From IMG/VR virus record IMGVR_UViG_3300027734_000054: a stretch of DNA of 64,000 nt; one strand, written 5' to 3'. The notes under the pieces are model-generated. The model was not told the DNA's origin, made no database searches, and saw only the letters and a list, made by a program, of their open reading frames with translations. Made by a program: the position numbers and the translations under genes. Positions 5,350-61,939 of the stretch are shown piece by piece (position 1 is the stretch's first letter; every line of letters begins with the position of its first letter). This stretch comes from an uncultured virus (IMG/VR IMGVR_UViG_3300027734_000054). Taxonomy: Duplodnaviria; Heunggongvirae; Uroviricota; Caudoviricetes.

Positions 5350-5751
5350 CTAACTGAGCAGAGTTTCTATCTCTTTATAGAATTGTTTGAATTTAGATGG
5401 GAAAAAATCTTTCATTTCTTGTATTTCCCTATTCGATATTTGATATTTTTCTTTGATAAAATCTAATATTTCCTCCTTATAATTATCTTGCGATTTTTCC
5501 TTCTCTTTCTTTATAGTTTTAGTCCAAATCCAAGATGGAGTTTTTTTATTATGATGTGTTACGAACACTTTCCAGAAATCCACTACTTTTTCAGGTTGGA
5601 TTTTAATATTATTGAAAGAATTAGCCTGTAATGGATATGCAATAGAGCATGTTCGATTAATCATAAAGAGATTTCTTGCTTTATCTCTATCTCTTACCTT
5701 CCCCCAACTCTTCGTGTGAAAAGATTTAATTATTTCGAAAGGATTATCCAT
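5350..5751 (-). CDS. Probable clamp loader small subunit (T4 gp62-like)
   Basis: PFEII..FMINR..WIWTK..ILDFIKEKY pattern, size, and proximity to the clamp loader large subunit. Confidence 0.6.
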   Translation of the reverse strand: MDNPFEIIKSFHTKSWGKVRDRDKARNLFMINRTCSIAYPLQANSFNNIKIQPEKVVDFWKVFVTHHNKKTPSWIWTKTIKKEKEKSQDNYKEEILDFIKEKYQISNREIQEMKDFFPSKFKQFYKEIETLLS

Positions 5752-12309: not shown

Positions 12310-12312
12310 TTT

Positions 12313-14525: not shown

Positions 14526-15010
14526 CTCATTATAAAGTTTTCGTTTATAGCTCCAAATTTATAACCCCTTGCTTCTGCAAATCTTGTTGCTGCCTCAAAC
14601 TTTGATCTATTTATTATCCATGTCTTAAGCTTCTCGTTGTAATTTCTAATTTTCTTTTCAGTTAAATTACCTATCGGTTCTTGTGGACGTTTTGTTATAT
14701 CATATTGATTTTCGGGTTTGATCTCTATAAACCAATTTTCTATGGTTTGATCGGCTTTCTTAACCTGAATATAATAATCAACGAAATATTTATGCTCTTT
14801 CTTATCGATAGGACTCCAATAAGGTATCGAAAGAGGCTCAGAACTCCATTTTAATATATTGGGATTCGTGTCGCAGTATTGACAGAATTTTCTTTCCCAC
14901 GAGCTTCTGTATATTATATTGTGTATATCACCGATGTACTTTTCAGGGTTGTTTGGAAAATATTTACCAGACTGCCACTTACCATTCGGTTTTAACTTTT
15001 TAATGTCCAA
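14522..15010 (-). CDS. Head completion nuclease (T4 gp4 / TnsA N-terminal-like)
   Basis: PEKYIGD..IIYRSSWERKF..WSSE..IPY..YFVD..IEIKP. Confidence 0.9.
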   Translation of the reverse strand: MDIKKLKPNGKWQSGKYFPNNPEKYIGDIHNIIYRSSWERKFCQYCDTNPNILKWSSEPLSIPYWSPIDKKEHKYFVDYYIQVKKADQTIENWFIEIKPENQYDITKRPQEPIGNLTEKKIRNYNEKLKTWIINRSKFEAATRFAEARGYKFGAINENFIMR

Positions 15011-15012
15011 AA

Positions 15013-15369
15013 TTAAACGTTATAGACAGAGTTCTCTTCTCTTACTATTCTAGAAAAAGGTATAGTTTTAATTGATTTTGGTGGGTGGATTTTTTTCCAT
15101 CCTTTTTTCATACCGTTGTGTGCGATTTGAGATATGAATGCAAAAGGGTTATCGGATTTTGCAGGATCGTAACGATTCCAGTATTTAACTAGATCCTCTA
15201 GCCCTGACGACATACAGTCTTCTCTGTCTTCGCTATCTCTATATGAATGTGTTTTTGACATACCGTTTACTATAAGGGTAAACATTTCAACGGTTTCTCT
15301 TGTGAGCTGGCCTTTTTCTTTGCTTTCTAAAAGTGCTCTTTTTAATTCTTTGTTTTTTACGTAGATCAT
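15013..15369 (-). CDS. Late transcription sigma factor (T4 gp55-like, short)
   Basis: YVKNKEL..REDCMS.GLE..KY..YDP.KS.NPFAFISQI pattern typical of gp55. Confidence 0.8.
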   Translation of the reverse strand: MIYVKNKELKRALLESKEKGQLTRETVEMFTLIVNGMSKTHSYRDSEDREDCMSSGLEDLVKYWNRYDPAKSDNPFAFISQIAHNGMKKGWKKIHPPKSIKTIPFSRIVREENSVYNV

Positions 15370-50391: not shown

Positions 50392-51120
50392 TTATAATTT
50401 ATCTTCTTCGATAATAGAATACCAAAAGATTTGTTGTTTTGAATTTTTTACTAAATTCCAAAATTCGTTCCATTTTTTTTCTGTCGGAATTACTTGACAT
50501 CCAGCAGAATATCCACCAACACAGGGTATACCAGAAGATCCATCTACACCTTTAGGAGATAACCCATAATGAAAATTTGTACCAGTTCCTATATCTTTTT
50601 TTGGTGGATCATATGTTTTTACCACGTTGTCTTTTGCTGAAAATCTATTTACTGGTATTTCCTTTGGAGATAATCCATCAATACTAGGAACCAAAGCAGG
50701 TATTGTTTTATTCGACGATCCAAAAGTGTGAGTTCCGATCTTAAATTTATATTCAGAATCATCCAAAATTGCTACATCGGTATCGAACCAAGCGACAGAA
50801 GGAACTGTGGTGGCTTGGAATGGTGTAATATTAGGATTTTCTTTTTTTGCATTCTTTGGTATAAAATAAATACTGTCAATATATTTTTCTTGACCATTCT
50901 TTCTAGCTTCCAATTTTCTTCTTATTCCTACTATTACTGCATCACCATTATCAATAGATTTTAACGTCTCTTTGTATTTTCCCACTTTAATTAGATCACC
51001 ATGTATTTTTTTAAAAGACACAGGAACCTGTGGAATAACAGGGGATTCTTTGCAATAATTTTTTATGTATTCTTCCCTATTACTCTCGTTAATAAATTCA
51101 GAATATTTTAGGATCATCAT
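50392..51120 (-). CDS. Hypothetical protein with H...SAGCQV motif (possible peptidoglycan peptidase)
   Basis: GTNFH and SAGCQV motifs; N-terminal EFINES. Confidence 0.6.
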   Translation of the reverse strand: MMILKYSEFINESNREEYIKNYCKESPVIPQVPVSFKKIHGDLIKVGKYKETLKSIDNGDAVIVGIRRKLEARKNGQEKYIDSIYFIPKNAKKENPNITPFQATTVPSVAWFDTDVAILDDSEYKFKIGTHTFGSSNKTIPALVPSIDGLSPKEIPVNRFSAKDNVVKTYDPPKKDIGTGTNFHYGLSPKGVDGSSGIPCVGGYSAGCQVIPTEKKWNEFWNLVKNSKQQIFWYSIIEEDKL

Positions 51121-51143
51121 GACCTATATATCTTATTTTTTAG

Positions 51144-51216
51144 ATGTCCCGCCAGGGCTCGAACCTGGACTCTTCTGAACCAAAATCAGACGTGTTGCCA
51201 ATTACACCACAGGACA
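51144..51216 (-). tRNA. tRNA-Gln(TTG)
   Basis: Cloverleaf, anticodon arm TCTGA-TTTTGGT-TCAGA. Confidence 0.95.
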
Positions 51217-51222
51217 TTATAG

Positions 51223-51295
51223 AGCCTTTGACAGGGATCGAACCTGCGACATCTTCATTACAAATGAAGCGCTCTACCAGCTGAGCTACAAAGGC
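51223..51295 (-). tRNA. tRNA-Thr(TGT)
   Basis: Cloverleaf, CTTCA-TTTGTAA-TGAAG. Confidence 0.95.
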
Positions 51296-51296
51296 A

Positions 51297-51373
51297 TGGG
51301 GTGACAGAGGAGAATCGAACTCCCGACCTTCTGAACCACAATCAGACGCTCTAACCAACTGAGCTACCGTCAC
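51297..51373 (-). tRNA. tRNA-His(GTG)
   Basis: Cloverleaf, TCTGA-TTGTGGT-TCAGA, C73, encoded CCA, no encoded G-1. Confidence 0.95.
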
Positions 51374-51375
51374 AG

Positions 51376-51448
51376 TAGCGAGTGGCAGGTTCGAACTGCC
51401 GACCTTCGGGGTATGATTCCGACGCTCTACCAACTGAGCTAACTCGCC
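51376..51448 (-). tRNA. tRNA-Met(CAT), probably elongator
   Basis: Cloverleaf, TCGGA-ATCATAC-CCCGA. Lacks the initiator 1:72 mismatch and the GGG/CCC anticodon stem. Confidence 0.85.
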
Positions 51449-51457
51449 ATATAAAAG

Positions 51458-51531
51458 TGGAGGATAACGGATTCGAACCGTTGACCCCTTGCGTGCAAGG
51501 CAAGTGCTCTAGCCAGCTGAGCTAATCCCAC
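51458..51531 (-). tRNA. tRNA-Ala(TGC)
   Basis: Cloverleaf with G3:U70 and a U2.C71 mismatch. Confidence 0.93.
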
Positions 51532-51606
51532 TGGAGCAGGTACCCGGAATCGAACCGAGATCTTCTGATTGGAAGTCAGAAGTAATGACCGTTATACGAT
51601 ACCTGC
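51532..51606 (-). tRNA. tRNA-Gly(TCC)
   Basis: Cloverleaf, TCTGA-CTTCCAA-TCAGA, encoded CCA. Confidence 0.95.
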
Positions 51607-51609
51607 ATT

Positions 51610-51694
51610 TGGTCGGAGCGGAGGGATTCGAACCCCCAATGCCGTAAGGCGGCTGATTTACAGTCAGCTGAGCAACCAATTGCTCAACACTCCG
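51610..51694 (-). tRNA. tRNA-Tyr(GTA) with C1:G72 and long variable arm
   Basis: Acceptor CGGAGTG/CGCTCCG, A73, CCA; anticodon arm GCTGA-CTGTAAA-TCAGC. Confidence 0.95.
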
Positions 51695-51699
51695 AAGTG

Positions 51700-51772
51700 C
51701 GGGGATGATAGGATTCGAACCTATGACCTACTGATTAACAGTCAGTTGCTACTACCGCTGAGCTACATCCCC
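51700..51772 (-). tRNA. tRNA-Asn(GTT)
   Basis: Cloverleaf, ACTGA-CTGTTAA-TCAGT. Confidence 0.95.
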
Positions 51773-51777
51773 AGTTT

Positions 51778-51866
51778 AGATTAGAGAATATTTGAACGGG
51801 GTGGTTTTTTTGGTCAAAAAATTACAAGGTTTTGATCGAAGTAACCCCTTTCACCGCTTCTAATCT
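51778..51866 (-). ncRNA. Y-RNA-like RNA (copy within tRNA operon 1)
   Basis: Terminal stem AGATTAGA/TCTAATCT enclosing GAAGCGG...GTTACTTC...TATTCTC, the same motif as three RNAs upstream of the Ro60 gene. Confidence 0.75.
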
Positions 51867-51868
51867 TG

Positions 51869-51941
51869 TAGTCCCTGAGGGATTCGAACCCCCGACATTT
51901 TGGATGTAAACCAAACGCTCTACCAACTGAGCTAAGAGACT
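51869..51941 (-). tRNA. tRNA-Val(TAC)
   Basis: Cloverleaf, TTTGG-TTTACAT-CCAAA. Confidence 0.95.
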
Positions 51942-51946
51942 AAATG

Positions 51947-52023
51947 TGGTTGACATAGAAGGATTCGAACCTTCGGCCTTTGACGTATCAGATCAACGCT
52001 CTAACCAACTGAGCTATATGTCA
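51947..52023 (-). tRNA. tRNA-Ile(GAT)
   Basis: Cloverleaf, loop CTGATAC, encoded CCA. Confidence 0.93.
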
Positions 52024-52029
52024 ATGTTG

Positions 52030-52115
52030 CGGAAAGAATTGGAATCGAACCAAATACCAATTAAAGTACGCTTCGCTTAGCAGGCGAGCCCCGTCACCAT
52101 CTGAGATTACTTTCC
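52030..52115 (-). tRNA. tRNA-Ser(GCT), atypical acceptor/T/D junction
   Basis: GGAAAG/CTTTCC, G73, loop CTGCTAA, long variable arm, TTGG-TTCGATT-CCAA. Confidence 0.8.
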
Positions 52116-52244
52116 TTTTTTAATTAACCTTCTGATTCTTTTTATCAATCTTTCGGTGTGTTTAAATTTTATTGTTTCTCTTCTTAAGTTTTCTTTACTA
52201 GAGGGGAAACTTCCTCTTGCTACTATTCTGCTTTCTATCGTCAT
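52107..52244 (-). CDS. Possible small basic protein (45 aa)
   Basis: MTIESRIVARG...LIKKGK* fills the gap between tRNAs. Its stop overlaps the 5' end of tRNA-Ser. Confidence 0.35.
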   Translation of the reverse strand: MTIESRIVARGSFPSSKENLRRETIKFKHTERLIKRIRRLIKKGK

Positions 52245-52261
52245 ATTTTTAAATTTTTTTG

Positions 52262-52333
52262 AGGTCGTGACTGGAATCGAACCAGTATAACTAGTTTTGC
52301 AGACTAGTGCCTAAACCACTCGACCACACGACC
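52262..52333 (-). tRNA. tRNA-Cys(GCA)
   Basis: Cloverleaf, CTAGT-CTGCAAA-ACTAG, U73. Confidence 0.95.
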
Positions 52334-52344
52334 TTATTTATTTG

Positions 52345-52417
52345 AGGCTCCACCTGGATTCGAACCAGGATCAGATCATCCGTAGTGATCTATTCTAATC
52401 CATTGAACTATAGAGCC
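52345..52417 (-). tRNA. tRNA-Arg(ACG)
   Basis: Cloverleaf, GATCA-CTACGGA-TGATC. Confidence 0.95.
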
Positions 52418-52425
52418 TTATTTTG

Positions 52426-52498
52426 CACAAAGGGTAGGACTCGAACCTACGACACCCAGTTTTGGAGACTGGTGCTCTACCAACTGAGCTACCGATGT
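52426..52498 (-). tRNA. tRNA-Trp(CCA)
   Basis: Cloverleaf, CCAGT-CTCCAAA-ACTGG, two acceptor-stem mismatches. Confidence 0.9.
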
Positions 52499-52504
52499 GT
52501 ATAG

Positions 52505-52577
52505 TGATCCCGGAGGGGCTCGAACCCTCGACTCCCGCATTAAAAGTGCGGTGCTCTACCAGCTGAGCTACGAGATC
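52505..52577 (-). tRNA. tRNA-Lys(TTT)
   Basis: Cloverleaf, CCGCA-CTTTTAA-TGCGG. Confidence 0.95.
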
Positions 52578-52648
52578 ATTGTTACTAAACTTGTTTTTGT
52601 AATACTAAACATGATTAGTTTAGTGAGACAATTTCTTGTTTAGTATTG

Positions 52649-52721
52649 TGGTACCGGCCGGAATCGAACCGGCGACACCTAGATTTTCAGTCTAGTGCTC
52701 TACCAACTGAGCTACGGTACC
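52649..52721 (-). tRNA. tRNA-Phe(GAA)
   Basis: Cloverleaf, CTAGA-CTGAAAA-TCTAG. Confidence 0.95.
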
Positions 52722-52735
52722 ATTTTTTTCCAGTA

Positions 52736-52747
52736 TGTCAAAGAACA
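52736..52747 (-). promoter_or_regulatory. boxA antitermination element, operon 1
   Basis: TGTTCTTTGACA, resembling rrn boxA, between the terminator and the first tRNA. Confidence 0.75.
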
Positions 52748-52781
52748 AAAAAAAAGGCTTTGATGTGAATCAAAGCCTTTT
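52747..52781 (-). terminator. Attenuator terminator, operon 1
   Basis: AAAAGGCTTTGAT-TCAC-ATCAAAGCC followed by T9. Confidence 0.9.
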
Positions 52782-52809
52782 CCGAAATATCTAAATATGA
52801 TTTTCTGTA

Positions 52810-52917
52810 TTAGCTTCGATCGGGTTCTTTCCCCTTTGCCCAAAACGCCACCGTTTGATAGCAGCCATTAATCTGACTGATCATGCGATTGATGTTATGT
52901 TTACTACAGTTTTTCAT
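52810..52917 (-). CDS. Leader peptide 1 (35 aa, MKNCSKHNINRMISQINGCYQTVAFWAKGKEPDRS)
   Basis: ATG just downstream of GATATATA. Codons 1-30 use only, and all of, the 16 amino acids of the downstream tRNAs. The 3' end can pair with the terminator 5' arm. Confidence 0.85.
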   Translation of the reverse strand: MKNCSKHNINRMISQINGCYQTVAFWAKGKEPDRS

Positions 52918-52998
52918 TTTTCTTTATTATATATCCTGTTTCCAGAATAGTTTCGTAAAAGTACAATATCTTTTTTAAATAAAAAAATGTTTTTCAAA

Positions 52999-53568
52999 TT
53001 ATTTCAAAAATTTTAAAACTTTTTCTTTTATTCCTGATTGCTTAATCCCTTGCATAATGCTAGGAGTGTGTACAAAGTTTGTTAATCCCCATCCAGTACC
53101 GCTTCTATTATTAGATACTTCTTTAAAGCTCATATCTAAATCATCTATTGCTACCCAATGAGTAACTCCGGAATGGGCCTTTAACCATTCTTGGATTTCT
53201 AAAGTTCTTGATGCTTCTAAATCCCAGTCTGGATGCCATTCTTGGTTTTCTGTGTAAGGATATTCTCTTGGTGTGAAATCTATAGGTTTTTTAATTATTC
53301 CTTGTTGTTCATAGTATTCTCCCATTTCCTCTATTGTTGCCCAGACCTTCCAATCTGAAGAAACAACTATTTCAGCTCCAGTCTCTTCTAGAATTAAATT
53401 TAAAACCTTTATTGCTTTCTTGTCGAAGTTATCAAATCTAGCTCCTACATGAAAACTCATTACATCCTGCGAAAGCTTTTTTCTAGCTTTAGCCTGCTTT
53501 TTGTAACGTCCTCCAAATTGTTGGGAAAGACAAATTACTCCATCATGATCTAAAAATATAATTTTCAT
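52999..53568 (-). CDS. HAD-family phosphatase (Swiss-Army-Knife RNA repair-like HAD domain)
   Basis: IIFLDHDGV, IVVSSDW, R..EI..WL and VAIDD motifs. True ATG at 53568, just after tRNA-Leu. Confidence 0.8.
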   Translation of the reverse strand: MKIIFLDHDGVICLSQQFGGRYKKQAKARKKLSQDVMSFHVGARFDNFDKKAIKVLNLILEETGAEIVVSSDWKVWATIEEMGEYYEQQGIIKKPIDFTPREYPYTENQEWHPDWDLEASRTLEIQEWLKAHSGVTHWVAIDDLDMSFKEVSNNRSGTGWGLTNFVHTPSIMQGIKQSGIKEKVLKFLK

Positions 53569-53570
53569 AG

Positions 53571-53649
53571 TACCCAGGGAGGGACTCGAACCCTCACGCT
53601 TTCGCACTAGATCCTAAATCTAGCGTGTATACCATTTCACCACCTGGGC
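53571..53649 (-). tRNA. tRNA-Leu(TAG)
   Basis: Cloverleaf, CTAGA-TTTAGGA-TCTAG, variable arm. Confidence 0.95.
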
Positions 53650-53653
53650 TTAG

Positions 53654-53726
<73 letters not shown>

Positions 53727-53731
53727 ATATA

Positions 53732-53806
53732 TGGCGGTCCCGCGGAGAATCGAACTCCGAACTCTGCCGTGACAGGGCAGCATTATAGCCGTTTAACTAC
53801 GGGACC
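53732..53806 (-). tRNA. tRNA-Asp(GTC)
   Basis: Cloverleaf, CTGCC-CTGTCAC-GGCAG, G73, CCA. Confidence 0.95.
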
Positions 53807-53817
53807 TTAATTTTTTG

Positions 53818-53889
53818 TACTGCCACGGAGAATCGAACTCCGATTTTATGGATGAAAACCATAGGTCCTAACCGTTAGACGATGGCAGC
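53818..53889 (-). tRNA. tRNA-Glu(TTC)
   Basis: Cloverleaf, TATGG-TTTTCAT-CCATA. Confidence 0.95.
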
Positions 53890-53893
53890 GTAA

Positions 53894-53905
53894 TTTCAAA
53901 GAACA
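53894..53905 (-). promoter_or_regulatory. boxA antitermination element, operon 2
   Basis: TGTTCTTTGAAA. Confidence 0.75.
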
Positions 53906-53913
53906 TATAAAAC

Positions 53914-53942
53914 AAAAAAACCTCTGAGGTTATCAGAGGTTT
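53914..53942 (-). terminator. Attenuator terminator, operon 2
   Basis: AAACCTCTGA-TAACC-TCAGAGG followed by T7. Confidence 0.9.
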
Positions 53943-53963
53943 AAATTATATCGTTATATAAAT

Positions 53964-54053
53964 TTATTTCCTCTGACACTTAATTGTATCCTCTAGAAGG
54001 TCATCTTCTTTATGAAGTTGAAAATCTATTGCGATATTTAAAAAGTGTTTCAT
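53964..54053 (-). CDS. Leader peptide 2 (29 aa, MKHFLNIAIDFQLHKEDDLLEDTIKCQRK)
   Basis: Run GAA GAT GAC CTT CTA GAG GAT matches the downstream Glu/Asp/Leu(TAG) tRNAs. TGTCAGAGG can pair with the terminator 5' arm. Confidence 0.85.
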   Translation of the reverse strand: MKHFLNIAIDFQLHKEDDLLEDTIKCQRK

Positions 54054-54192
54054 TGAAAGCTTTGTTCTTTTTTTATTATATACCTCAAAAGTACAAAAAA
54101 GTTTCTATTAAAAAAAATAAAAATGTGAAATCATCTGGAATTATCTATATTTCTGATCTATATTTGAATCTGTAACAATAATACAATGATCT

Positions 54193-54705
54193 ATGAAAAA
54201 TCTAAAATTAGCATTTATTTTCCTATTCATACTAGGAACAAGTGTAACCGCTTTATCGCAGAATGAAGGCATAGAATCTTTCAACAACACAATGGCTGGA
54301 GCTAGCAAATTGAGAGGCGATGCTTACTATCCATTTTACGATCAACCGGAACTAAGAGGTAAATTCTTAAGCGTAGTAGGGAATCCTAAGCTATGGAAAA
54401 AATTTATTACTAAGAAGGATGAAAGCTATATTGGAGTTTTTGCTCCCGGTGTGGAATGGGATCTTTATACAGAAGACGATATGCTATATGAGCCAATTAT
54501 GATAAAGAGCACAGTAGATTCATATTACGATAGTTTCCTTAAACAGGTAAGATACGACAGATATGAATATGAGGTTCAAACTCAGGACGATGGAACTGTC
54601 CAAGAGATTTATACTCTATTCAAAGATGGCGTATTCTATAGAGAATATATGGTTGGATGGCATTATAACAAGATATGCTCCATATCTGAATATAAAGAGC
54701 AATAA
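54193..54705 (+). CDS. Hypothetical exported protein
   Basis: N-terminal signal peptide MKNLKLAFIFLFILGTSVTALS-Q. Confidence 0.75.
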   Translation: MKNLKLAFIFLFILGTSVTALSQNEGIESFNNTMAGASKLRGDAYYPFYDQPELRGKFLSVVGNPKLWKKFITKKDESYIGVFAPGVEWDLYTEDDMLYEPIMIKSTVDSYYDSFLKQVRYDRYEYEVQTQDDGTVQEIYTLFKDGVFYREYMVGWHYNKICSISEYKEQ

Positions 54706-54733
54706 AAAAAGCCAGCTATATAGCTGGCTTTTT
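54704..54733. terminator. Bidirectional intrinsic terminator
   Basis: A7-GCCAGCTA-TA-TAGCTGGC-T5 between convergent genes. Confidence 0.85.
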
Positions 54734-54752
54734 AGTTTAATGTTTCACACCC

Positions 54753-55448
54753 TTATGCTTTTTTAGGGGAAAGAGCAGCATAACTTTTTGGAAATTCTTC
54801 TACGAATGATTTCATTCCTGGATCTTGTTTAGTTCCGCTATCACCAAACTGTTTGGCCATTTTAGGAATGAATCCTTTTATTGTAATTTCTTTACTGATC
54901 TTCTTCGCGAATTTTTTAAATGTATCAGTTACCGTAGTATTATAAGTAGGAGACAATAGAAGAGTAGTTATAACTTTTGCTAGATTTGTGCCTGCAGTAG
55001 AATCGATGCAAATACCGGATCTTTCCATAAAATTTGCAAGTAGATCTATAGAATTTGAAGCATTATATAATTGACCGCTGGATTTATCTGCGTCAAAATC
55101 TTCCATTTTAGTAATTGCTGCAGGATACCTATCATCCCCATCGACTCTTTCATATATGTAAGCGTATGATTTTCCCTGCTTTAATTCAGGGGGAGTCTTC
55201 TTATCAGCATAATTAGAGGAAGGAAAGTAAATTGATACACTTTTAGGACTTTCACCACCTTTACTAAAGCCAATAATTGTGTCATTACTATTTGTATCAA
55301 CCGTCATTATATTAGCTTTCATGTTACCTAGCTTATCAGATCTATCGGTACCCAAATTATAAGGTACACCTGGTACGATATCGGATTCGTTAATAGGATT
55401 GTAATATTGATTTTCTAGAATAAAATCGTTGAATCTTTTAATTTTCAT
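54753..55448 (-). CDS. Hypothetical protein with capsid-targeting-like N-terminus
   Basis: MKIKRFNDFILEN. Confidence 0.7.
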   Translation of the reverse strand: MKIKRFNDFILENQYYNPINESDIVPGVPYNLGTDRSDKLGNMKANIMTVDTNSNDTIIGFSKGGESPKSVSIYFPSSNYADKKTPPELKQGKSYAYIYERVDGDDRYPAAITKMEDFDADKSSGQLYNASNSIDLLANFMERSGICIDSTAGTNLAKVITTLLLSPTYNTTVTDTFKKFAKKISKEITIKGFIPKMAKQFGDSGTKQDPGMKSFVEEFPKSYAALSPKKA

Positions 55449-55466
55449 TTTTTTATATTTAATTTT

Positions 55467-55745
55467 TTACATGCTCCAAGCTGGATTAGCTACAATTAAC
55501 ATATCTCCTTCTACTCTTGGTATTTGTTTAGTTGAATAAGCATCATCATATTGAATTTGCTCTGGATAAAATTTTTGTCCCTGGAACATGATATAGTTTT
55601 CTTCGTCCTTACCCCTGTGGCTCCATCCTTGACCTCTAAGAGAATCGTGAGCAGCATCGTCAACTGTGGGTTTTCCGAAAAGTGAATCCCAAAATCCTTC
55701 GTTAATTTTGGAATTGTTATCTTGATATTTTTTAAGGTGTTTCAT
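55467..55745 (-). CDS. Hypothetical protein with capsid-targeting-like N-terminus
   Basis: MKHLKKY...INEG, preceded by GATATATA. Confidence 0.7.
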   Translation of the reverse strand: MKHLKKYQDNNSKINEGFWDSLFGKPTVDDAAHDSLRGQGWSHRGKDEENYIMFQGQKFYPEQIQYDDAYSTKQIPRVEGDMLIVANPAWSM

Positions 55746-55779
55746 TTCTTTTTTTTATTTAATCTATATATCTAATATT

Positions 55780-56622
55780 TTATCCACTATAAGGCATTCC
55801 TTCTCCATCTTCAATAGTGATCTCAGAATACATACCAGTTACTATATTAATTAGCTTGTTAATAGTGTCTAATCTTTTATATTCAACATCTAAATTTAAT
55901 TTTTCAGCATGAGATAATCCTGGTAGTAATGTCCCTTCTTGAAACTCAAGTAAGCGTGTAATTACTTGTGAAAATGAAGCAGGCTCATATACAGCACTTA
56001 TTGGTAATTCTAAGTCTGTAGTACTGGCTAATAATTCAGAATCGTATCTTTTTTTAATCAAAAGATAGCTCTCCTCAGCTGTTTTTAAAGTTGAACGAAG
56101 TTGTACAAAGTCAACGATATTATTTCCCGCCGACTCCAGATATATGTCGTCATTGTATTCTGAGTAATTGATTGAATCAAATTGTAAATATTTAGAAACA
56201 GTCCATTCAACTAATATATTATCTGAAGTAATTGAAGAAGCATATATTTCACTTTTTGGTACTTCGATAACAATTTTAAGTGCTATTGTATACTTTTGAT
56301 AATAGTTTTGGTAGAATCTATATGCTTCAGTAGAAAGAAAAGTTTTATCTAAGTTAATAACAGCTTGTCCTTGTTCATTTACCCTTGAGGACTGTTTTGA
56401 TAAATAATCAGTTGAATCTATTATACTAGGTGTTTTAGAATTAAGTACTGGTTCCGCTTCATTTAAACCACTCCTAGATAATAAAGCTACCAACCCAACC
56501 ATAACAGTTACACCTGTCTCTGGGTTAGCAGGTTGTGTGGTAGTGCTACCGTATTCATCAGTTACATCAATTACAAAATTAATTAATAACTCATTGTATT
56601 CATTTAATTTATACTCTTCCAT
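55780..56622 (-). CDS. Hypothetical protein
   Basis: 280-aa ORF. Confidence 0.7.
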   Translation of the reverse strand: MEEYKLNEYNELLINFVIDVTDEYGSTTTQPANPETGVTVMVGLVALLSRSGLNEAEPVLNSKTPSIIDSTDYLSKQSSRVNEQGQAVINLDKTFLSTEAYRFYQNYYQKYTIALKIVIEVPKSEIYASSITSDNILVEWTVSKYLQFDSINYSEYNDDIYLESAGNNIVDFVQLRSTLKTAEESYLLIKKRYDSELLASTTDLELPISAVYEPASFSQVITRLLEFQEGTLLPGLSHAEKLNLDVEYKRLDTINKLINIVTGMYSEITIEDGEGMPYSG

Positions 56623-56725
56623 TATTTTATTAAGTTATAATACTCCTTAAAGTGATCTATTCTATCAGGTACCCCAATAATATCTTCCAAGGTTTTTTAT
56701 CCATTCTATATATCTAATTATCCAA

Positions 56726-57577
56726 TTAGAATCCATTAGTTGATGTATTATAGAAAACCAATCCAGTTACATTAGTCGTTTTAGTAATAGTAGGAGTTGA
56801 GTAATTAAATGTCATTACGTCACCACCACTCAACTCTCCAAATTGTATTCTTATAGGATAATAAACACCCGAAGTTAAAGCGATTGTCCCAGATTTTTCG
56901 ATTGTACCGTGTAATCCACCGTTATTAACTGTTGAGTTTGTTGTAGTGAATCCACTAACAGCATTACTACCAACCCAAACATAGGAGGCATCATCAGATG
57001 AAGTAAAGAATGTGTAGGTTTCTGTGGTGGTTGGTTTGAAATATCCTAACCATTGACAACTGAAATTTTCTCCATCATTCTGAGAAGGTTCAAATATAGA
57101 AGTGGTTTGTACTGATGTTGCCGGATTTCCACCTACCGATGCGGGAGTCGCAGTTGCAAAGAAACTAACATTATCAGCAAAATACCCAGAGTAAGTCGTC
57201 TTATATAAACCTGCAAGATATGGATTTCTGTTAGTCCAATAGTTATTTGCTGTTAACCAATCATTAGCTGCTGAAGCAGATGCTTGTGTAGTACCGCTTA
57301 TTATTTGTACTGTAATTCGAAAAGCTTCATCTGTATTAGTACATCCCCAGAATTGTACAGTGCCTATATTACCTACTTGAGTTGGAAAGTTTCCAGAGGG
57401 TACATCTTTAGCTATTATATAAGAATTATCCTCGTCTGGACCCATCCACCAAGTTAATCCCCCGGGTTTTGCACCATAGTTTAAAGCAGATACACCTACA
57501 CATAATGTACCTACGTTTGTAGTTCCTGAAATTGTTGCTTGTGTTGGATTATATGCGAAAGGTCTTGATGTTGGCAT
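56726..57577 (-). CDS. PA14-domain protein (putative virion carbohydrate-binding)
   Basis: NFS.QW.GYF.P...TYTF...SDD.S.VW, G.YYPIRIQFGE..GG. ATG at 57577 follows GATATATA. Confidence 0.8.
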   Translation of the reverse strand: MPTSRPFAYNPTQATISGTTNVGTLCVGVSALNYGAKPGGLTWWMGPDEDNSYIIAKDVPSGNFPTQVGNIGTVQFWGCTNTDEAFRITVQIISGTTQASASAANDWLTANNYWTNRNPYLAGLYKTTYSGYFADNVSFFATATPASVGGNPATSVQTTSIFEPSQNDGENFSCQWLGYFKPTTTETYTFFTSSDDASYVWVGSNAVSGFTTTNSTVNNGGLHGTIEKSGTIALTSGVYYPIRIQFGELSGGDVMTFNYSTPTITKTTNVTGLVFYNTSTNGF

Positions 57578-57599
57578 ATAGTATATATCAACAAAAAAG

Positions 57600-57704
57600 T
57601 ACAAGAGATTGGACTTGCACCAATATGAACTTTCATTCTCGGGTAGATTACCCTAGCGTCTATCTATCGGATCATTGCAATGATCACACTTCCGCCACTC
57701 TTAT
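57600..57704 (-). ncRNA. tRNA-like RNA with D-loop hairpin insertion and no canonical anticodon loop
   Basis: Acceptor ATAAGAG/CTCTTGT-A; TGGCGGAA...AGACGC D arm with an inserted GATCATT/AATGATC hairpin; GGGTA-ATC-TACCC; T arm ATTGG-TGCAAGT-CCAAT. Confidence 0.7.
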
Positions 57705-57709
57705 ATATG

Positions 57710-57793
57710 TACCCGGGACGGGAATCGAACCCGTACAACCAAATGGTTACAGCATTTTAAGTGCTGCGTGACTACCAATTCCACCACCCGGGC
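57710..57793 (-). tRNA. tRNA-Leu(TAA)
   Basis: Cloverleaf, CAGCA-CTTAAAA-TGCTG, variable arm. Confidence 0.95.
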
Positions 57794-57809
57794 GAATGTG
57801 TAATTTTTG

Positions 57810-57883
57810 TGGTCCCTCACGGGCTCGAACCGTGGACCTACTGATTATGAGTCAGTTGCTCTAACCTACTGAGCTAAAGGACC
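57810..57883 (-). tRNA. tRNA-Ile2(CAT), lysidine type reading ATA
   Basis: GGTCCTTTAGCTCAG...GACTCATAATC resembles bacterial Ile2. Separate Met and fMet tRNAs are present elsewhere. Confidence 0.8.
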
Positions 57884-57887
57884 TAAG

Positions 57888-57961
57888 TAGAGACTATGGG
57901 AGTCGAACCCATGACCGCATGCGTATAAGGCATGTGCTCTAACCAATTGAGCTAAGCCTCT
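57888..57961 (-). tRNA. tRNA-Ile(TAT)
   Basis: Cloverleaf, CATGC-CTTATAC-GCATG, A73. Confidence 0.9.
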
Positions 57962-57969
57962 TGGGGCTG

Positions 57970-58042
57970 TCGGGATACCAGGACTCGAACCTGGGGCCTC
58001 CTGGTCCCAAACCAGGCGATCTACCAACTGATCTACATCCCG
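57970..58042 (-). tRNA. tRNA-Pro(TGG)
   Basis: C1:G72, CCTGG-TTTGGGA-CCAGG. Confidence 0.95.
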
Positions 58043-58045
58043 AAA

Positions 58046-58204
58046 TTGTATGTCTTTAAATATCCCCAGAACATACAAACTGTGCTAACCCACGATTTAG
58101 AGAATAAGTGTGCATATCATTAAAGAATACCGAAATATTCTAACTGTCTACGTTGTAGAGGCATATTCTATCTTCGATCCATACCCAGCGCTAGGCAGAG
58201 GGCT
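58046..58204 (-). ncRNA. Unassigned structured RNA within tRNA operon 3
   Basis: Nested helices: AGCCC/GGGTT, TGCCTAG/CTGGGTA, AGAATA/TATTCT, TCTAC/GTAGA, AGAATAT-TTCG-GTATTCT, TTGTATGT/ACATACAA. Confidence 0.55.
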
Positions 58205-58217
58205 TTTTATTTTTTAG

Positions 58218-58289
58218 TACCCCCGGCGGGAATCGAACCCACATTGACGGTTTAGAAAACCGCTGTTCTATCCGTTGAACTACGGAGGC
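58218..58289 (-). tRNA. tRNA-Arg(TCT)
   Basis: Cloverleaf, GCGGT-TTTCTAA-ACCGT. Confidence 0.95.
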
Positions 58290-58292
58290 AAT

Positions 58293-58382
58293 TGGAGGAG
58301 AGTGAGGGATTCGAACCCCCGGTAGCTTTCACTACGTCAGTTTTCAAGACTGGTGCATTAAACCGGGCTCTGCCAACTCTCC
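58293..58382 (-). tRNA. tRNA-Ser(TGA)
   Basis: Cloverleaf, loop CTTGAAA, long variable arm, CCA. Confidence 0.95.
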
Positions 58383-58399
58383 AATTTGATAATCCAACA

Positions 58400-58411
58400 T
58401 GTCAAAGAACA
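58400..58411 (-). promoter_or_regulatory. boxA antitermination element, operon 3
   Basis: TGTTCTTTGACA. Confidence 0.75.
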
Positions 58412-58412
58412 C

Positions 58413-58445
58413 AAAAAAACCGGGACTTTTTGAAGGTCCCGGTTT
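58413..58445 (-). terminator. Attenuator terminator, operon 3
   Basis: AAACCGGGAC-CTTCAAAAA-GTCCCGG followed by T7. Confidence 0.9.
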
Positions 58446-58478
58446 AGTTAATGATTATTTTTTATTAACACAGGACCT

Positions 58479-58538
58479 TTAGGATCGTCTTATCGACGGT
58501 CTTAATATTGAAGGTGATATGTTAAATATTGTTTTCAT
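58479..58538 (-). CDS. Leader peptide 3 (19 aa, MKTIFNISPSILRPSIRRS)
   Basis: Run ATA TCA CCT TCA ATA TTA AGA CCG TCG ATA AGA matches the downstream Ile(ATA)/Ser(TGA)/Pro/Leu(TAA)/Arg(TCT) tRNAs. AAGGTCCTG can pair with the terminator 5' arm. Confidence 0.88.
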   Translation of the reverse strand: MKTIFNISPSILRPSIRRS

Positions 58539-58588
58539 TTGAACTTTATATATCGTATTTGTTGTTTTGTTTCACAAATATAGATATT

Positions 58589-58870
58589 TTATCTTATATA
58601 AAAAAATGATTTTCTGAAATCTTGAAGATTTATTTTTTTAGACTTACCTAAGTAAGAAGCGATATCTTCTGCAGTCTCTTCATCTTCGAGATCACATAGT
58701 ATGTAGAAATCTGCATCATCTCTAAAATCTATTTTAGATTCTGTATAGAAAAATACATCATCAGATTCTTCTCCTTGATTTGGATCTGAAAAATCTGATT
58801 CTAAATATTCGCAGATCTCTTCTTCCTCAAATTTAAATTCTTCGTATCCTGTATAGACTTTAATTGACAT
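58589..58870 (-). CDS. Hypothetical acidic protein
   Basis: 93-aa ORF. Confidence 0.65.
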   Translation of the reverse strand: MSIKVYTGYEEFKFEEEEICEYLESDFSDPNQGEESDDVFFYTESKIDFRDDADFYILCDLEDEETAEDIASYLGKSKKINLQDFRKSFFYIR

Positions 58871-58872
58871 AA

Positions 58873-59223
58873 TTAGATTTCTTCTACTAATACTTTTTTA
58901 AGTTCGTATGCGCCGTCCTGTCCAGGTACTTCATCATAATATCCAACGATTGAATATCTTCTTCCGTCAGAGCTTGAATCTTCTATCATCTCGATATTGC
59001 TTACCATTGAACTTCCAACGTATTCTGGTTCAGAAGCGCCAGCAATTTCTATTGTTGTATCTTCCCCGTCTGCATTTTGAAAGTTAACAATGTAATTACC
59101 TTCGCTATTTCCGTCGGTAGGTCTAAAATCTGTAGTTTCTGCTTCAAAATGAACATCACTCATAGTGTCTTCCATAGGCATAGCCTCAGTGGAATATTGT
59201 TCGTAAATTCTTAGATATTTCAT
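58873..59223 (-). CDS. Hypothetical acidic protein with capsid-targeting-like N-terminus
   Basis: MKYLRIYEQY, preceded by GATATATA. Confidence 0.7.
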   Translation of the reverse strand: MKYLRIYEQYSTEAMPMEDTMSDVHFEAETTDFRPTDGNSEGNYIVNFQNADGEDTTIEIAGASEPEYVGSSMVSNIEMIEDSSSDGRRYSIVGYYDEVPGQDGAYELKKVLVEEI

Positions 59224-59249
59224 CTTTTTTTTTATTTTATATATCCTTA

Positions 59250-59396
59250 TTATTTACCTTGACCAACGTAAGCTTTCTTGTAGTTCTTAGAATTCTTACT
59301 TACACTACTTTTACACTTGGAATGAATTCCTGGTCTTTTTTTCTTAGAGCTGCGCTTGTGGTTCTTGCTAGAATCTGTAGTTTTAGGTTTAGCCAT
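59250..59396 (-). CDS. Small basic protein (48 aa) ending YKKAYVGQGK
   Basis: ATG with an A-rich upstream region. Fills the gap between co-oriented genes. Below the ORF-track length cut-off. Confidence 0.7.
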   Translation of the reverse strand: MAKPKTTDSSKNHKRSSKKKRPGIHSKCKSSVSKNSKNYKKAYVGQGK

Positions 59397-59405
59397 TTTT
59401 TATTT

Positions 59406-59684
59406 TTATTTGAGCTTAGCTGGGGTATCTTTTTTAGAGATGAATCCTCCTTTGTTAAACATATTTTGGTTTACAGTAAATCTTTTTGAGTTTTGATTTA
59501 GGTTCTGTAGGGTGATAATAGTATCAGATACTTCATAAACTTCACAAGGAGCTCCCATATAAACTAATTTGTCACCTACTGATAAATTTGAAAATGGAAA
59601 TTCTTCTCCGTATCCTTTTAATATATTAGAACCAGAAGTATAAACCTCGTAACTGTGATTCTCAAATGTCTTTAAATTTTTCAT
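59406..59684 (-). CDS. Hypothetical protein with capsid-targeting-like N-terminus
   Basis: MKNLKTFENH. ATG at 59684 preferred because the longer start overlaps a terminator. Confidence 0.65.
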   Translation of the reverse strand: MKNLKTFENHSYEVYTSGSNILKGYGEEFPFSNLSVGDKLVYMGAPCEVYEVSDTIITLQNLNQNSKRFTVNQNMFNKGGFISKKDTPAKLK

Positions 59685-59766: not shown

Positions 59767-61413
59767 TTAGGCTTCTACTGAATCCCAAATGTCTATAATT
59801 GCTTTAGCAAATATTGGTTCTTTACCTGTCCATCCTGCTAATATTCCTCCTCTATAAAGAGCTTCAGGAAGCACGGTGTTATTGTAGCCACCCACCTGTA
59901 CAGTAAATAAATTAACTTTAGGATTAACCTTTTCCCTGTATTCCTGAGCCATAGCAAGTACGTCTACGTGTGTTCCCCCTCCTTTCGGGTGGATAAATTT
60001 ACTTGATCCTACTGTTTCTCTGTGTCCAAAAAGACCTCCGTGCCCTGCCTGCATATCTGAATAGATAAAGATGTTGTCGTAATGGACTTTATTTTTAATA
60101 GCTTCATCAAAGAATACCCAAATACCATTTTCTGTACCACCTCCTTGAGCTTTACCTCTTTTAGATGTTTCATCCAATTGAGTAAGAAGACCGTTTCTTT
60201 TAGATACACCTTTTAATGAAAGGTTATCTCCAAATACTCCAACCTCTCCAGAATCGGATTGTAGTGAGGTAATTAAAGAAGACAAGTTAGCAATTTCTGC
60301 CACGGTAACTGTTCCATATTCGCTATTGAAAGCTCCCCATGCAGATCCGGAGTTATCTGAAAGACAAACTGTTTTACCTTTTAACTTAGGCATATTCTCA
60401 ACAGAGATATCTAAACATTCCTCTAAAGTATCCAAAACAAGTTGTTTGTGGTGGATCTGAGAATCTGTTACTGCTCTATAAGCAGACCAATATCTAAAAG
60501 GAAATTGTTTTCCCTTAACAACACCCGATTTTAATTGTGTTAAAATTCTAGCAGTAATTGTAGGATCTTCAACTTCAGTAAAAATACCTCTAAGGTTTCT
60601 CAAAAGAGCCATGTGAGGGATTAAGATAGTATTTGTGATCTCTTCCCAAGATTTCTTTTCAGATCTTAAATTCTCCCAAGTTTTTTCCCGTTCTGTTATT
60701 TTTAATGTACCAGTTGACATTAGTTCGTTAATGTCCTCGCTTTTACCGTGGGAAATACGAACAAGATCTATTAATCTTTTACCTTTGTACTTATTCAATT
60801 GGTATCTAGAGAATTCAGAAAGTCTTTCTGCCCAAGTTCTTTTTACTAGTGAGGAAAGTCCTTTTTTGCTTCCGTTCTTATACATGTAGTATTCAAACTG
60901 ATTTGTTAAATCATCTGGACGTAGAGCAATTGACTTGCCTATCATTTTCATATATCCCGGATTTTCTTCGTTAAACTTCTGACGTCCTTCGTGCATACTC
61001 GCTTTCATGAATATTACAGCAGGATTTAAACGCATATAGTACTCGTTACGAAGTTCTAATGCTAAATCCAAGGTTGATTTAAAGTCGAAGTCCAATGATG
61101 CTTGTATGGCTTCCTCAAATATATCTACAACGCTCATATCGTCTTTTAAAGCTCCGGATTCGGATTTGAACATAGGAGCTAATATAGAATAGTCAAGGAT
61201 AGTGATAAGATTCTTAGGAGCACCTAATCCGTCTCTATAGTATTGTGGTTCACCAAAGATCGAAGACGCAGCAACAATCTTTAAAGTGTTTAGAGGCGAT
61301 AAAACATAAGATGTTCCTCCCATGAAGTTCTCCACTCCTAGTGCTCCGTAAGTGGAGTTTTGTAAAATTTGCATTGCTGTTTTTTTGTCAGCAAATTCGC
61401 TTATTCTTGACAT
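59767..61413 (-). CDS. rsr: Ro60 / TROVE-domain RNA-binding protein with C-terminal vWA
   Basis: N..GG.SY, R.E..MR..P, YQLNKY, L.DLVRISH, TWE, MALLRNLR, QFPFRY.SAY, D.SGS MIDAS and SDMQ motifs. Confidence 0.92.
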   Translation of the reverse strand: MSRISEFADKKTAMQILQNSTYGALGVENFMGGTSYVLSPLNTLKIVAASSIFGEPQYYRDGLGAPKNLITILDYSILAPMFKSESGALKDDMSVVDIFEEAIQASLDFDFKSTLDLALELRNEYYMRLNPAVIFMKASMHEGRQKFNEENPGYMKMIGKSIALRPDDLTNQFEYYMYKNGSKKGLSSLVKRTWAERLSEFSRYQLNKYKGKRLIDLVRISHGKSEDINELMSTGTLKITEREKTWENLRSEKKSWEEITNTILIPHMALLRNLRGIFTEVEDPTITARILTQLKSGVVKGKQFPFRYWSAYRAVTDSQIHHKQLVLDTLEECLDISVENMPKLKGKTVCLSDNSGSAWGAFNSEYGTVTVAEIANLSSLITSLQSDSGEVGVFGDNLSLKGVSKRNGLLTQLDETSKRGKAQGGGTENGIWVFFDEAIKNKVHYDNIFIYSDMQAGHGGLFGHRETVGSSKFIHPKGGGTHVDVLAMAQEYREKVNPKVNLFTVQVGGYNNTVLPEALYRGGILAGWTGKEPIFAKAIIDIWDSVEA

Positions 61414-61441: not shown

Positions 61442-61474
61442 AAAAAAGGGTTTAAACCGTAGTTCAAACCCCTT
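61442..61474 (-). terminator. Intrinsic terminator between Y-RNA array and Ro60 gene
   Basis: GGGTTTGAAC-TACG-GTTTAAACCC followed by T6. Confidence 0.8.
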
Positions 61475-61481
61475 AAAGTTA

Positions 61482-61556
61482 TATCCTGAGTATTTTGACA
61501 AAGAGCGTTGTTTCGTGTAATTGTAGTGAAGTAACTCTTTATCCCGCTTCAGAATA
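61482..61556 (-). ncRNA. Y-RNA-like RNA, short
   Basis: TATTCTGA/TCAGGATA stem, GAAGCGG, GATAAAGAG/CTCTTTGTC stem, GTTACTTC. Confidence 0.78.
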
Positions 61557-61565
61557 ATAATTTAA

Positions 61566-61651
61566 AAACCGAGAATAAATAAACAAGGATGTTTTTCGTT
61601 TAAATTGATAAGAATGTAAATGATGTAATCCTTGTTCCCGCTTCGGAGTTT
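61566..61651 (-). ncRNA. Y-RNA-like RNA, short
   Basis: CCGA/TCGG stem, GAAGCGG, AACAAGGAT/ATCCTTGTT stem, ATTACATC, TATTCTC. Confidence 0.78.
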
Positions 61652-61667
61652 ATTTTATTAATAATAC

Positions 61668-61894
61668 TTTCTTGAGAAATCTTTAAAAGGTGGTTCCTCC
61701 TTATGGGAGGTAATCATTCCCGCATTTCTAGTCAGGAGAATAAAACCGAGCTACTGTAATTCTTCTTTTAAATCCTTACGAAAATAAAAGCGCCTCATCT
61801 ATAGCAGTACTGAGACCTGGTGTAGATTAGAACCGGAGAACTAATCCTTTCGACGTTTATTGTATGGAGTAACCATTTAAACCGCTTCAAGAAA
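61668..61894 (-). ncRNA. Y-RNA-like RNA, long, with multi-hairpin insert
   Basis: TTTCTTGA/TCAAGAAA stem, GAAGCGG, TTTAAA/TTTAAA, TGGTTACTCC...GGAGGAACCA, TTTCTC. About 160-nt insert. Confidence 0.75.
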
Positions 61895-61901
61895 ATAAGT
61901 A

Positions 61902-61939
61902 TGTGAAAGAACTTTTTTTTAATAATACCTGCAAATATA
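61902..61939 (-). promoter_or_regulatory. Bacteroidota-type -7 box (TATATTTG) and boxA-like AGTTCTTTCACA upstream of the Y-RNA array
   Basis: TATATTTG at 61932-61939 and GTTCTTT at 61906-61912. Confidence 0.6.

Follow-up and report, generated by a model that had tools for sequence, protein, structure and literature searches.

The 64,000-nucleotide (nt) stretch of the uncultured virus record IMGVR_UViG_3300027734_000054 in IMG/VR, referred to below as the window, carries its tRNA genes in three operons on the minus strand. In front of the six-gene operon 3 a short open reading frame (ORF) contains eleven consecutive codons which are all read by the tRNAs of that operon, and its stop codon runs into a strand that can pair with a terminator. 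We regard this element, unit 3, as probably a ribosome-mediated (leader-peptide) transcription attenuator which gates operon 3 and is one of three, one per operon. The phage would then probably make the operon-3 tRNAs only when ribosomes decode the matching codons slowly. An attenuator at this place had been proposed before from the letters of the sequence, and that interpretation is now supported by the sibling units, by conservation, by covariation in leaders 1 and 2 and by an independent lineage, L035.

Leader codons and competing hairpins of unit 3

As expected of an attenuator, a short ORF with a start codon lies downstream of a putative promoter. The promoter-like motif TATATTTG, which we take to be a Bacteroidota-type -7 element, precedes leader ORF 3, and motifs of this type are conserved upstream of leader 3 in the relatives. 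The distance from leader ORF 3 to operon 3 is 97 nt. The six tRNAs named in the original prediction (Ser, Arg, Pro, Ile, CAU and Leu) were found downstream at 58382-57709, and the minus-strand reading together with the tRNA calls gives codons 7-17 exactly as claimed, all of them read by operon-3 tRNAs.

Two decoding rules were applied, a strict one with A/G wobble and a relaxed one in which U34 also reads U in four-codon boxes. Strict wobble suffices for 10 of the 11 sensor codons; CCT requires a U34 that reads a U-ending codon. In the long ORFs of the window the operon-3 tRNAs read 14.7% of all codons under the strict rule and 19.4% under the relaxed one. The 11-codon run is the longest of its kind in all six frames of the window, the runner-up having eight codons, and the expected number of 11-codon runs over the six frames is 0.002. 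For the whole leader 11/18 codons (strict) or 12/18 (relaxed) match operon 3 (binomial P ~1e-5). The regulatory codons are thus enriched for the regulated product, and this enrichment is operon-specific.

All four Ile codons of leader 3 (positions 4, 7, 11 and 16) are indeed ATA (4/4), as had been noted earlier. They had also been taken as independent support that the CAU tRNA of operon 3 (57883-57809) is Ile2. This part gains no independent support, because the neighbouring tRNA-Ile(UAU) already reads ATA and the codons are uninformative on Ile2. The tRNA in question is 64-66% identical to the two Ile tRNAs, no closer a match than it has to tRNAs for Lys or Asn. In operon 2 the CAU tRNA carries initiator marks (C1 mismatched with position 72, GGG/CCC anticodon stem) and that of operon 1 resembles elongator Met, so that Ile2 (lysidine CAU) is plausible for the third one by elimination only. 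An internal ATG is absent from every leader-3 homologue.

The antiterminator strand AAGGTCCTG (58479-58471) starts in the stop codon and pairs over 9 base pairs with CGGGACCTT (58441-58433) in the 5' arm of the terminator, as originally predicted; one of the pairs is G-U. The predicted GTTAAT/ATTAAC hairpin between the two strands was also returned by ViennaRNA, at 58469-58447. When the 3' arm of the terminator is omitted, ViennaRNA gives the antiterminator (-18.8 kcal/mol, z -3.8, equalled by 0/200 shuffles), and when it is included the terminator instead (-15.5 kcal/mol, z -4.3, 0/200 shuffles). The terminator lies between the ORF and the tRNAs, and antiterminator and terminator are mutually exclusive. 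From the position of the stop codon, a ribosome terminating there would mask the antiterminator strand, and one held up at the sensor codons would leave it free, the ribosome footprint sizes used for this geometry being general background figures. The fold also contains a small hairpin at 58498-58486, outside the antiterminator strand, which is possibly a pause or timing hairpin.

Table 1. Features of the three tRNA units and of the neighbouring gene; positions are those of the window.
Feature	Position	Strand	Details
Promoter-like motif, unit 3	58575..58582	-	TATATTTG (TAnnTTTG form), ~37 nt upstream of the leader 3 ATG
Leader ORF 3	58479..58538	-	19 codons plus stop, peptide MKTIFNISPSILRPSIRRS; ATG 58538-58536, TAA 58481-58479
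Sensor codons 7-17	58488..58520	-	ATA TCA CCT TCA ATA TTA AGA CCG TCG ATA AGA
Small hairpin	58486..58498	-	CGUC-GAUAA-GACG in codons 14-18, from the fold; kept in homologues despite loop changes
Antiterminator 5' strand, unit 3	58471..58479	-	AAGGTCCTG; begins at the last base of the stop codon
Spacer hairpin, unit 3	58447..58469	-	GTTAAT/ATTAAC, inside the antiterminator; ViennaRNA prediction
Intrinsic terminator 3	58413..58445	-	Stem AAACCGGGAC/GUCCCGGUUU and 7 T (58419-58413); ViennaRNA
boxA-like motif, unit 3	58400..58410	-	GTTCTTTGACA, between terminator and first tRNA
tRNA operon 3	57709..58382	-	Ser-UGA, Arg-UCU, (174-nt spacer), Pro-UGG, Ile-UAU, CAU, Leu-UAA
tRNA-Ser-UGA	58293..58382	-	First gene of operon 3
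Terminator-like hairpin	57598..57621	-	3' of the last operon-3 tRNA
Leader ORF 1	52810..52917	-	35 codons, MKNCSKHNINRMISQINGCYQTVAFWAKGKEPDRS; antiterminator strand 52821-52812
Terminator 1 and boxA-like motif	52736..52783	-	Terminator 52783-52750, motif 52746-52736
tRNA operon 1	51143..52721	-	16 tRNAs including Ser(GCU) missed by ARAGORN
Leader ORF 2	53964..54053	-	29 codons, run GAA GAT GAC CTT CTA GAG GAT; antiterminator strand 53978-53970
Terminator 2 and boxA-like motif	53894..53942	-	Terminator 53942-53918, motif 53904-53894
tRNA operon 2	53570..53889	-	Glu-UUC, Asp-GUC, CAU (initiator marks), Leu-UAG
Ro/TROVE-like gene	59767..61413	-	Encodes a protein of 548 amino acids (aa)

Sibling units, relatives and an independent lineage

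The same series of parts stands before each of the three operons. A short ORF comes first, its last codons overlapping an antiterminator strand, and a small spacer hairpin, a terminator, a T run and the motif GTTCTTTGA(C/A)A follow. The leaders match their own operons and not the others. Leader 1 has 30 of 34 codons in the set of operon 1 (P 5e-6), 3/34 in that of operon 2 and 0/34 in that of operon 3. Leader 2 matches operon 2 with 7/28 codons (strict) or 9/28 (relaxed), operon 1 with 16/28 and operon 3 with 3/28, while the values of leader 3 for operons 1 and 2 are 5/18 and 0/18. Because the background fraction of operon-1 codons is 0.51, the 16/28 of leader 2 and the 5/18 of leader 3 are about what chance gives.

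Leader 1 samples all 16 tRNA species of operon 1, a coverage reached by none of 50,000 random 34-codon draws. It is not unique, since one ordinary gene near 5727 (minus strand) likewise reaches 16 species in a 34-codon window. ARAGORN reported 25 tRNA genes in the window, grouped in the three operons, and the only sensor codons of leader 1 left unexplained were AGT, AGT and AGC. These unmatched codons led to a missed tRNA-Ser(GCU) in the operon-1 gap at 52116-52030 (minus strand), which had surfaced as a sub-threshold Rfam match to tRNA-Sec (36.6 bits). Its anticodon loop reads CU-GCU-AA and its variable arm is long. Leader 1 had in effect predicted this gene. With this 26th tRNA, contributed by Rfam, all 20 amino acids are covered.

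Leader 1 prefers codons that are rare in the phage genes, such as CGC (0.1 per 1000), GCG (2.1), GTG, ACG, GGC and TGC. Many of these end in G and are read by U34 tRNAs via wobble. The rare codons may tune the sensitivity of the leader.

Relatives were collected by a search with the neighbouring 548-aa Ro/TROVE-like protein, which returned 48 viral contigs. An operon-3-type block occurs in 13 related contigs, and all 13 have a leader-3 homologue, 12 of them with the start ATG. For the codon comparison nine sequences were used; L002 (identical to L001), L011 and L012 (different operon content) and L005 (no ATG) were dropped. Of the 99 sensor-codon cells, 98 hold a codon of the operon-3 set. Variation affects six of the 11 sensor columns, by swaps among Ser, Leu and Ile codons (TCA/TTA/ATA/TCG/TCT). 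There are 10 distinct variant codons and 9 of them belong to the set, where neutral one-nucleotide changes would be expected to give a fraction of 0.33 (P 4e-4). The N-terminal codons 2-6 change at will, and a codon of the set occupies just 5/45 of their cells. Selection thus acts on which tRNA reads the codon and not on the peptide. In L011 and L012, which have no tRNA-Pro, the leader also has neither of the two Pro codons.

The stop codon of the homologues either overlaps the first base of the antiterminator strand or has been moved by a one-base insertion to a place immediately after it; the latter position is taken in 7 of the 13 relatives (among them L004, L005, L007, L008, L009 and L010). 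From either place a ribosome at the stop codon would be able to cover the antiterminator strand. The AGGTCCT of this strand is invariant in 11/11 homologues, and the antiterminator/terminator alternative is likewise predicted in 11/11. Other sequences form the spacer hairpin in the relatives (TAAGAT/ATCTTA or TTTTGATAT/ATATCAAAA), and changes in the 3' arm of the terminator preserve pairing through G-U. The competing strands of leader 3 are almost invariant, and direct covariation is seen in the other two leaders. Leader 2 of L010 and L036 has joint changes in the antiterminator strand and in the two arms of the terminator, and in leader 1 a U-A to C-G change of the terminator also converts an antiterminator G-U to G-C. 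Leader 1 of L010 has a rearranged order and still samples 16/16 species.

The lineage L035 is a 386-kilobase (kb) jumbo-phage contig which uses Shine-Dalgarno sites and encodes a Ro-like protein with 50% identity to that of the window. None of its three leaders resembles a leader of the window. Nevertheless each matches its own operon: leader A with 24/32 codons (P 2e-5), leader B with 35/44 (P 5e-8) and leader C with 18/34 (P 6e-6), while all off-diagonal comparisons of leaders and operons in L035 give P >= 0.8. The unmatched codons of leader C (AGT, AGT, AGC, CAA and ATA) are accounted for by three further tRNAs just past the end of the locus, namely Ser-GCU, Gln-UUG and one with a UAU anticodon. 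An antiterminator is clear for leader B only. Together with leader 1 of the window, leader C is the second case in which tRNA genes were predicted from leader codons.

Mechanism, rival explanations and known systems

From the parts, their geometry, the codon match, the conservation and the covariation we infer a leader that would be translated while the RNA polymerase advances, with an outcome depending on tRNA level. Transcription would start at the promoter just upstream of the 19-codon leader. With fast decoding of codons 7-17 the ribosome would reach the stop codon and mask AAGGUCCUG, so that the terminator would fold and transcription would end before the tRNAs. With slow decoding, caused by scarce Ser-UGA, Arg-UCU, Pro-UGG, Ile-UAU/CAU or Leu-UAA tRNA of host or phage origin, the ribosome would stall upstream, the free strand would pair with the 5' arm of the terminator, and the polymerase would read through into the six tRNA genes. 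The new tRNAs would accelerate decoding of the leader and close the switch, which would amount to a negative feedback on decoding capacity. The boxA-like element after the terminator probably loads Nus factors, so that the polymerase could cross a long untranslated tRNA array. Absence of translation would open the switch in the same way, a sensible behaviour for a unit that produces translation components.

One RNA-library contig of 231 nt (58297-58525, 2 differences) runs from tRNA-Ser across the terminator into the leader, most of which it includes, and is a weak hint that read-through molecules exist. The RNA runs are contigs only, from which start, end, strand and level are unreadable, and most of their pieces are short tRNA look-alikes from other organisms; stretches lacking coverage are uninformative.

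Several observations weigh against the attenuator. As to the codons, CCT in leader 3 and TCC in L004 depend on extended U34 wobble; the match of leader 2 alone is not significant (P 0.2 strict, P 0.07 relaxed), and about 1.2 runs of seven codons like its own are expected per window by chance. Host tRNAs read the same codons, so the sensor is blind to phage versus host tRNA and to amount versus charging. The antiterminator helix of leader 3 itself shows no covariation, the evidence of this kind being from its spacer hairpin and from the other two leaders. L005 has ATA at the leader-3 start position, and the leader of L011 and L012 retains three Ser codons while no tRNA-Ser was found in the 175-kb record (63% complete). 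Because unit 3 has no anti-antiterminator of the trp 1:2 kind, an untranslated leader 3 would read through. Coupling of polymerase and ribosome would have to exist in the presumed host. The RNA support is a single low-depth contig from a library that may contain DNA. Furthermore, the codon-matched unit is not a general design: in a strict hairpin search of 13 more distant loci a terminator was found upstream of 3 of 73 tRNA-block starts, all three in L035, the search leaving out L029, L031, L034, L038, L039 and L046. In Bacillus phage G the three tRNA-region stretches examined have promoters directly before the tRNAs and no leader/terminator units.

Unit 3 could also be a real attenuator whose signal is not how much of the operon-3 tRNAs is available but the charging of amino acids or the state of translation in general, for example host shut-off, ribosome shortage, starvation or the early/late timing of infection. 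Read-through would indeed arise whenever translation of the leader stays incomplete, whatever the cause, and a stalled ribosome cannot distinguish a missing from an uncharged tRNA. Such a general sensor would however not need three leaders that match three different operons and avoid the others, nor the sampling of 16 species, nor the same pattern in L035, and the substitutions among relatives remain inside the codon set of the operon. We therefore consider it unlikely.

The motif GTTCTTTGA after the terminator is the basis of another explanation, which we consider very unlikely: the hairpin only ends upstream transcription, the operon has its own promoter behind it, and the ORF is incidental. 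The motif contains TTTG, presumably as in Bacteroidota -7 elements, and lies 18-30 nt before the first tRNA; in L016 it stands before tRNAs without a leader or terminator. A separate promoter-like motif is found upstream of each leader, however, and an own promoter would leave unexplained the codon match, the operon specificity, the conservation of frame and stop, the covariation of the antiterminator and the findings in L035. The pattern GYTCTTTRANA has three matches in the window, each after a leader terminator. A near-identical boxA-like motif occurs just downstream of a promoter-like TATATTTG in a ~460-nt non-coding stretch before the Ro-like gene, thus downstream of TAnnTTTG and inside the presumed transcript in the fashion of a boxA, and boxA-like motifs also precede tRNA blocks in relatives without leaders. 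These two positions speak for a putative RNA element that belongs to untranslated operons and against a second promoter. The motif fits 10 of the 11 positions of the boxA consensus GYTCTTTAANA as given in the available text of PMC5725501, having G instead of A at position 8. From this similarity Nus factors would be expected to bind it.

An RNA-only or protein-mediated switch on the same hairpins, T-box-like or with a phage RNA-binding protein and an untranslated ORF, might account for the conservation at the nucleotide level, including the small hairpin within the ORF, and a Ro-like RNA-binding protein is encoded 1.2 kb upstream, but it is a far-fetched explanation, given that Rfam returned no leader, riboswitch or other family at threshold and no T-box match at E up to 1 in 50500-59500, that variation obeys codon-set rules and not base-pairing rules, and that the stop codon shifts in frame yet always lies at or just after the antiterminator strand.

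The attenuator that we favour resembles well known systems in most of its parts. Multivalent leader-peptide attenuators control amino-acid biosynthesis operons such as thr, ilv, his, trp, leu and pheA, and T-boxes bind uncharged tRNA directly, without a ribosome. Like the amino-acid attenuators, the phage units comprise a promoter-like motif, a short ORF rich in regulatory codons and a strand shared by antiterminator and terminator, with stalling presumably leading to read-through. They differ in that they would regulate tRNAs and not enzymes, in that the product would relieve the stall directly, and in that they sample up to 16 tRNA species instead of one to three amino acids. The trp leader has a 1:2 anti-antiterminator which unit 3 lacks. 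The best match to a leader family in Rfam is a weak one to Thr_leader (RF00506) at 58410-58532 with 25.7 bits; with a gathering score of 55 this value is much too low for unit 3 to count as a member of that family.

Leader-peptide and T-box attenuators that precede aminoacyl-tRNA synthetase genes are similar in that a shortage in the supply for decoding is sensed and a translation component is raised, the difference being that they raise charging enzymes and the phage units would raise tRNAs. A His leader precedes hisS paralogues in bacilli, according to the accessible part of PMC2965389. In Anabaena a tRNA gene array is induced under translational stress, as far as the available text of PMC8421152 reports; there too, a spare tRNA operon is switched on when translation is troubled. 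The terms attenuat-, leader and terminator are absent from that text, which describes no codon-matched leader for the Anabaena array. The boxA/Nus antitermination of rRNA operons, as described in the portion of PMC5725501 at hand, also has its motif at the start of an untranslated RNA operon. In contrast to the rRNA case, the boxA-like motif of the phage would be an accessory part and not the switch itself.

Within the one literature library searched, no account of leader-peptide attenuation of tRNA genes was found, and a term search in the available text of a broad attenuator survey gave no mention of tRNA genes or operons as targets. What is new here is the new target of a known attenuation mechanism, namely tRNA genes, together with the logic of sensing many tRNAs. 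As a wider proposal, which we put forward tentatively, large phages could run their tRNA supply as independent homeostats, each block standing behind a leader that test-reads all its species, with a match strict enough to predict unannotated tRNA genes. If true, a block would be induced specifically when its codons slow down and shut off once the phage tRNAs restore decoding. Possible triggers would be the breakdown of host tRNAs following infection or their cleavage by anticodon-nuclease defences.

The reasons why phages carry tRNA genes are under debate and include compensation of codon usage, a substitute for host tRNAs lost to degradation and evasion of defences that cut tRNAs. A codon-matched attenuator would directly link decoding speed to tRNA synthesis in a self-correcting manner, a logic known for amino-acid operons. 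Leader codons also offer a route to missed tRNA genes, and synthetic biology would gain from the leader a natural sensor that takes the availability of several tRNAs as its inputs.

Genomic setting and additional observations

The window is AT-rich (34.5% GC) and carries 64 of its 73 long ORFs on the minus strand. It is assigned to a large tailed phage because PHROG matches include a tail sheath, portal proteins and a tail fibre; an SbcC-like protein was also matched. The closest record, G001, has 68.7 kb and is rated ~24% complete. DNA runs containing this stretch are freshwater and riverine metagenomes. A blastn search of 57600-59400 against GenBank phages matched tRNA sequence only; 1024 records gave matches, all with less than 80% coverage of the query.

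The host is probably a member of the Bacteroidota, as judged from the near absence of Shine-Dalgarno-like motifs (before 3/64 ORFs versus 10/64 in the control) and from upstream regions with 50% A. The assignment rests on these two features because TAnnTTTG shows no overall enrichment, with 31 occurrences on the coding strand versus 41 on the opposite strand.

A pair of tandem portal-like paralogues lies at 10666-13932 (minus strand), in neighbouring ORFs of 547 aa (phrog_213 portal family, E 7e-59) and 539 aa (same family, E 5e-54).

The Ro-like protein has its closest named relative in Bacillus phage G (52% identity). Upstream of its gene, the region 61445-61939 (minus strand) contains the promoter-like TATATTTG at 61939-61932, the boxA-like GTTCTTTCACA at 61912-61902, three GAAGCGG...TTAC modules (61888, 61644 and 61550) and a terminator at 61474-61445. 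Similar stretches are present in L004 and L030. The ~460-nt non-coding stretch may be a Y-RNA-like partner of the Ro-like protein.

Within operon 3 the 174-nt spacer between tRNA-Arg and tRNA-Pro (58043-58216, minus strand) is found in some relatives with 166-174 nt and is absent in L004, L010 and L036. It folds no better than shuffled sequences (z 0.65). An RNA-library contig covers part of it with zero differences. In the near-identical relative L002 (5308-5983) a coding-like insert of ~680 nt separates the boxA-like motif from tRNA-Ser, the sequence of which differs. In unit 2 of L004 and L007 an additional element of ~90 nt follows the boxA-like motif and precedes tRNA-Glu; it is closed by a long helix, AGGAATAAGG...CCTTATTCCT, and has a T run. 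In L035 a tmRNA is located at 276-644, and a GOLLD-like RNA with an embedded tRNA (14629-15088; 96 bits, gathering score 150) lies just upstream of leader B.

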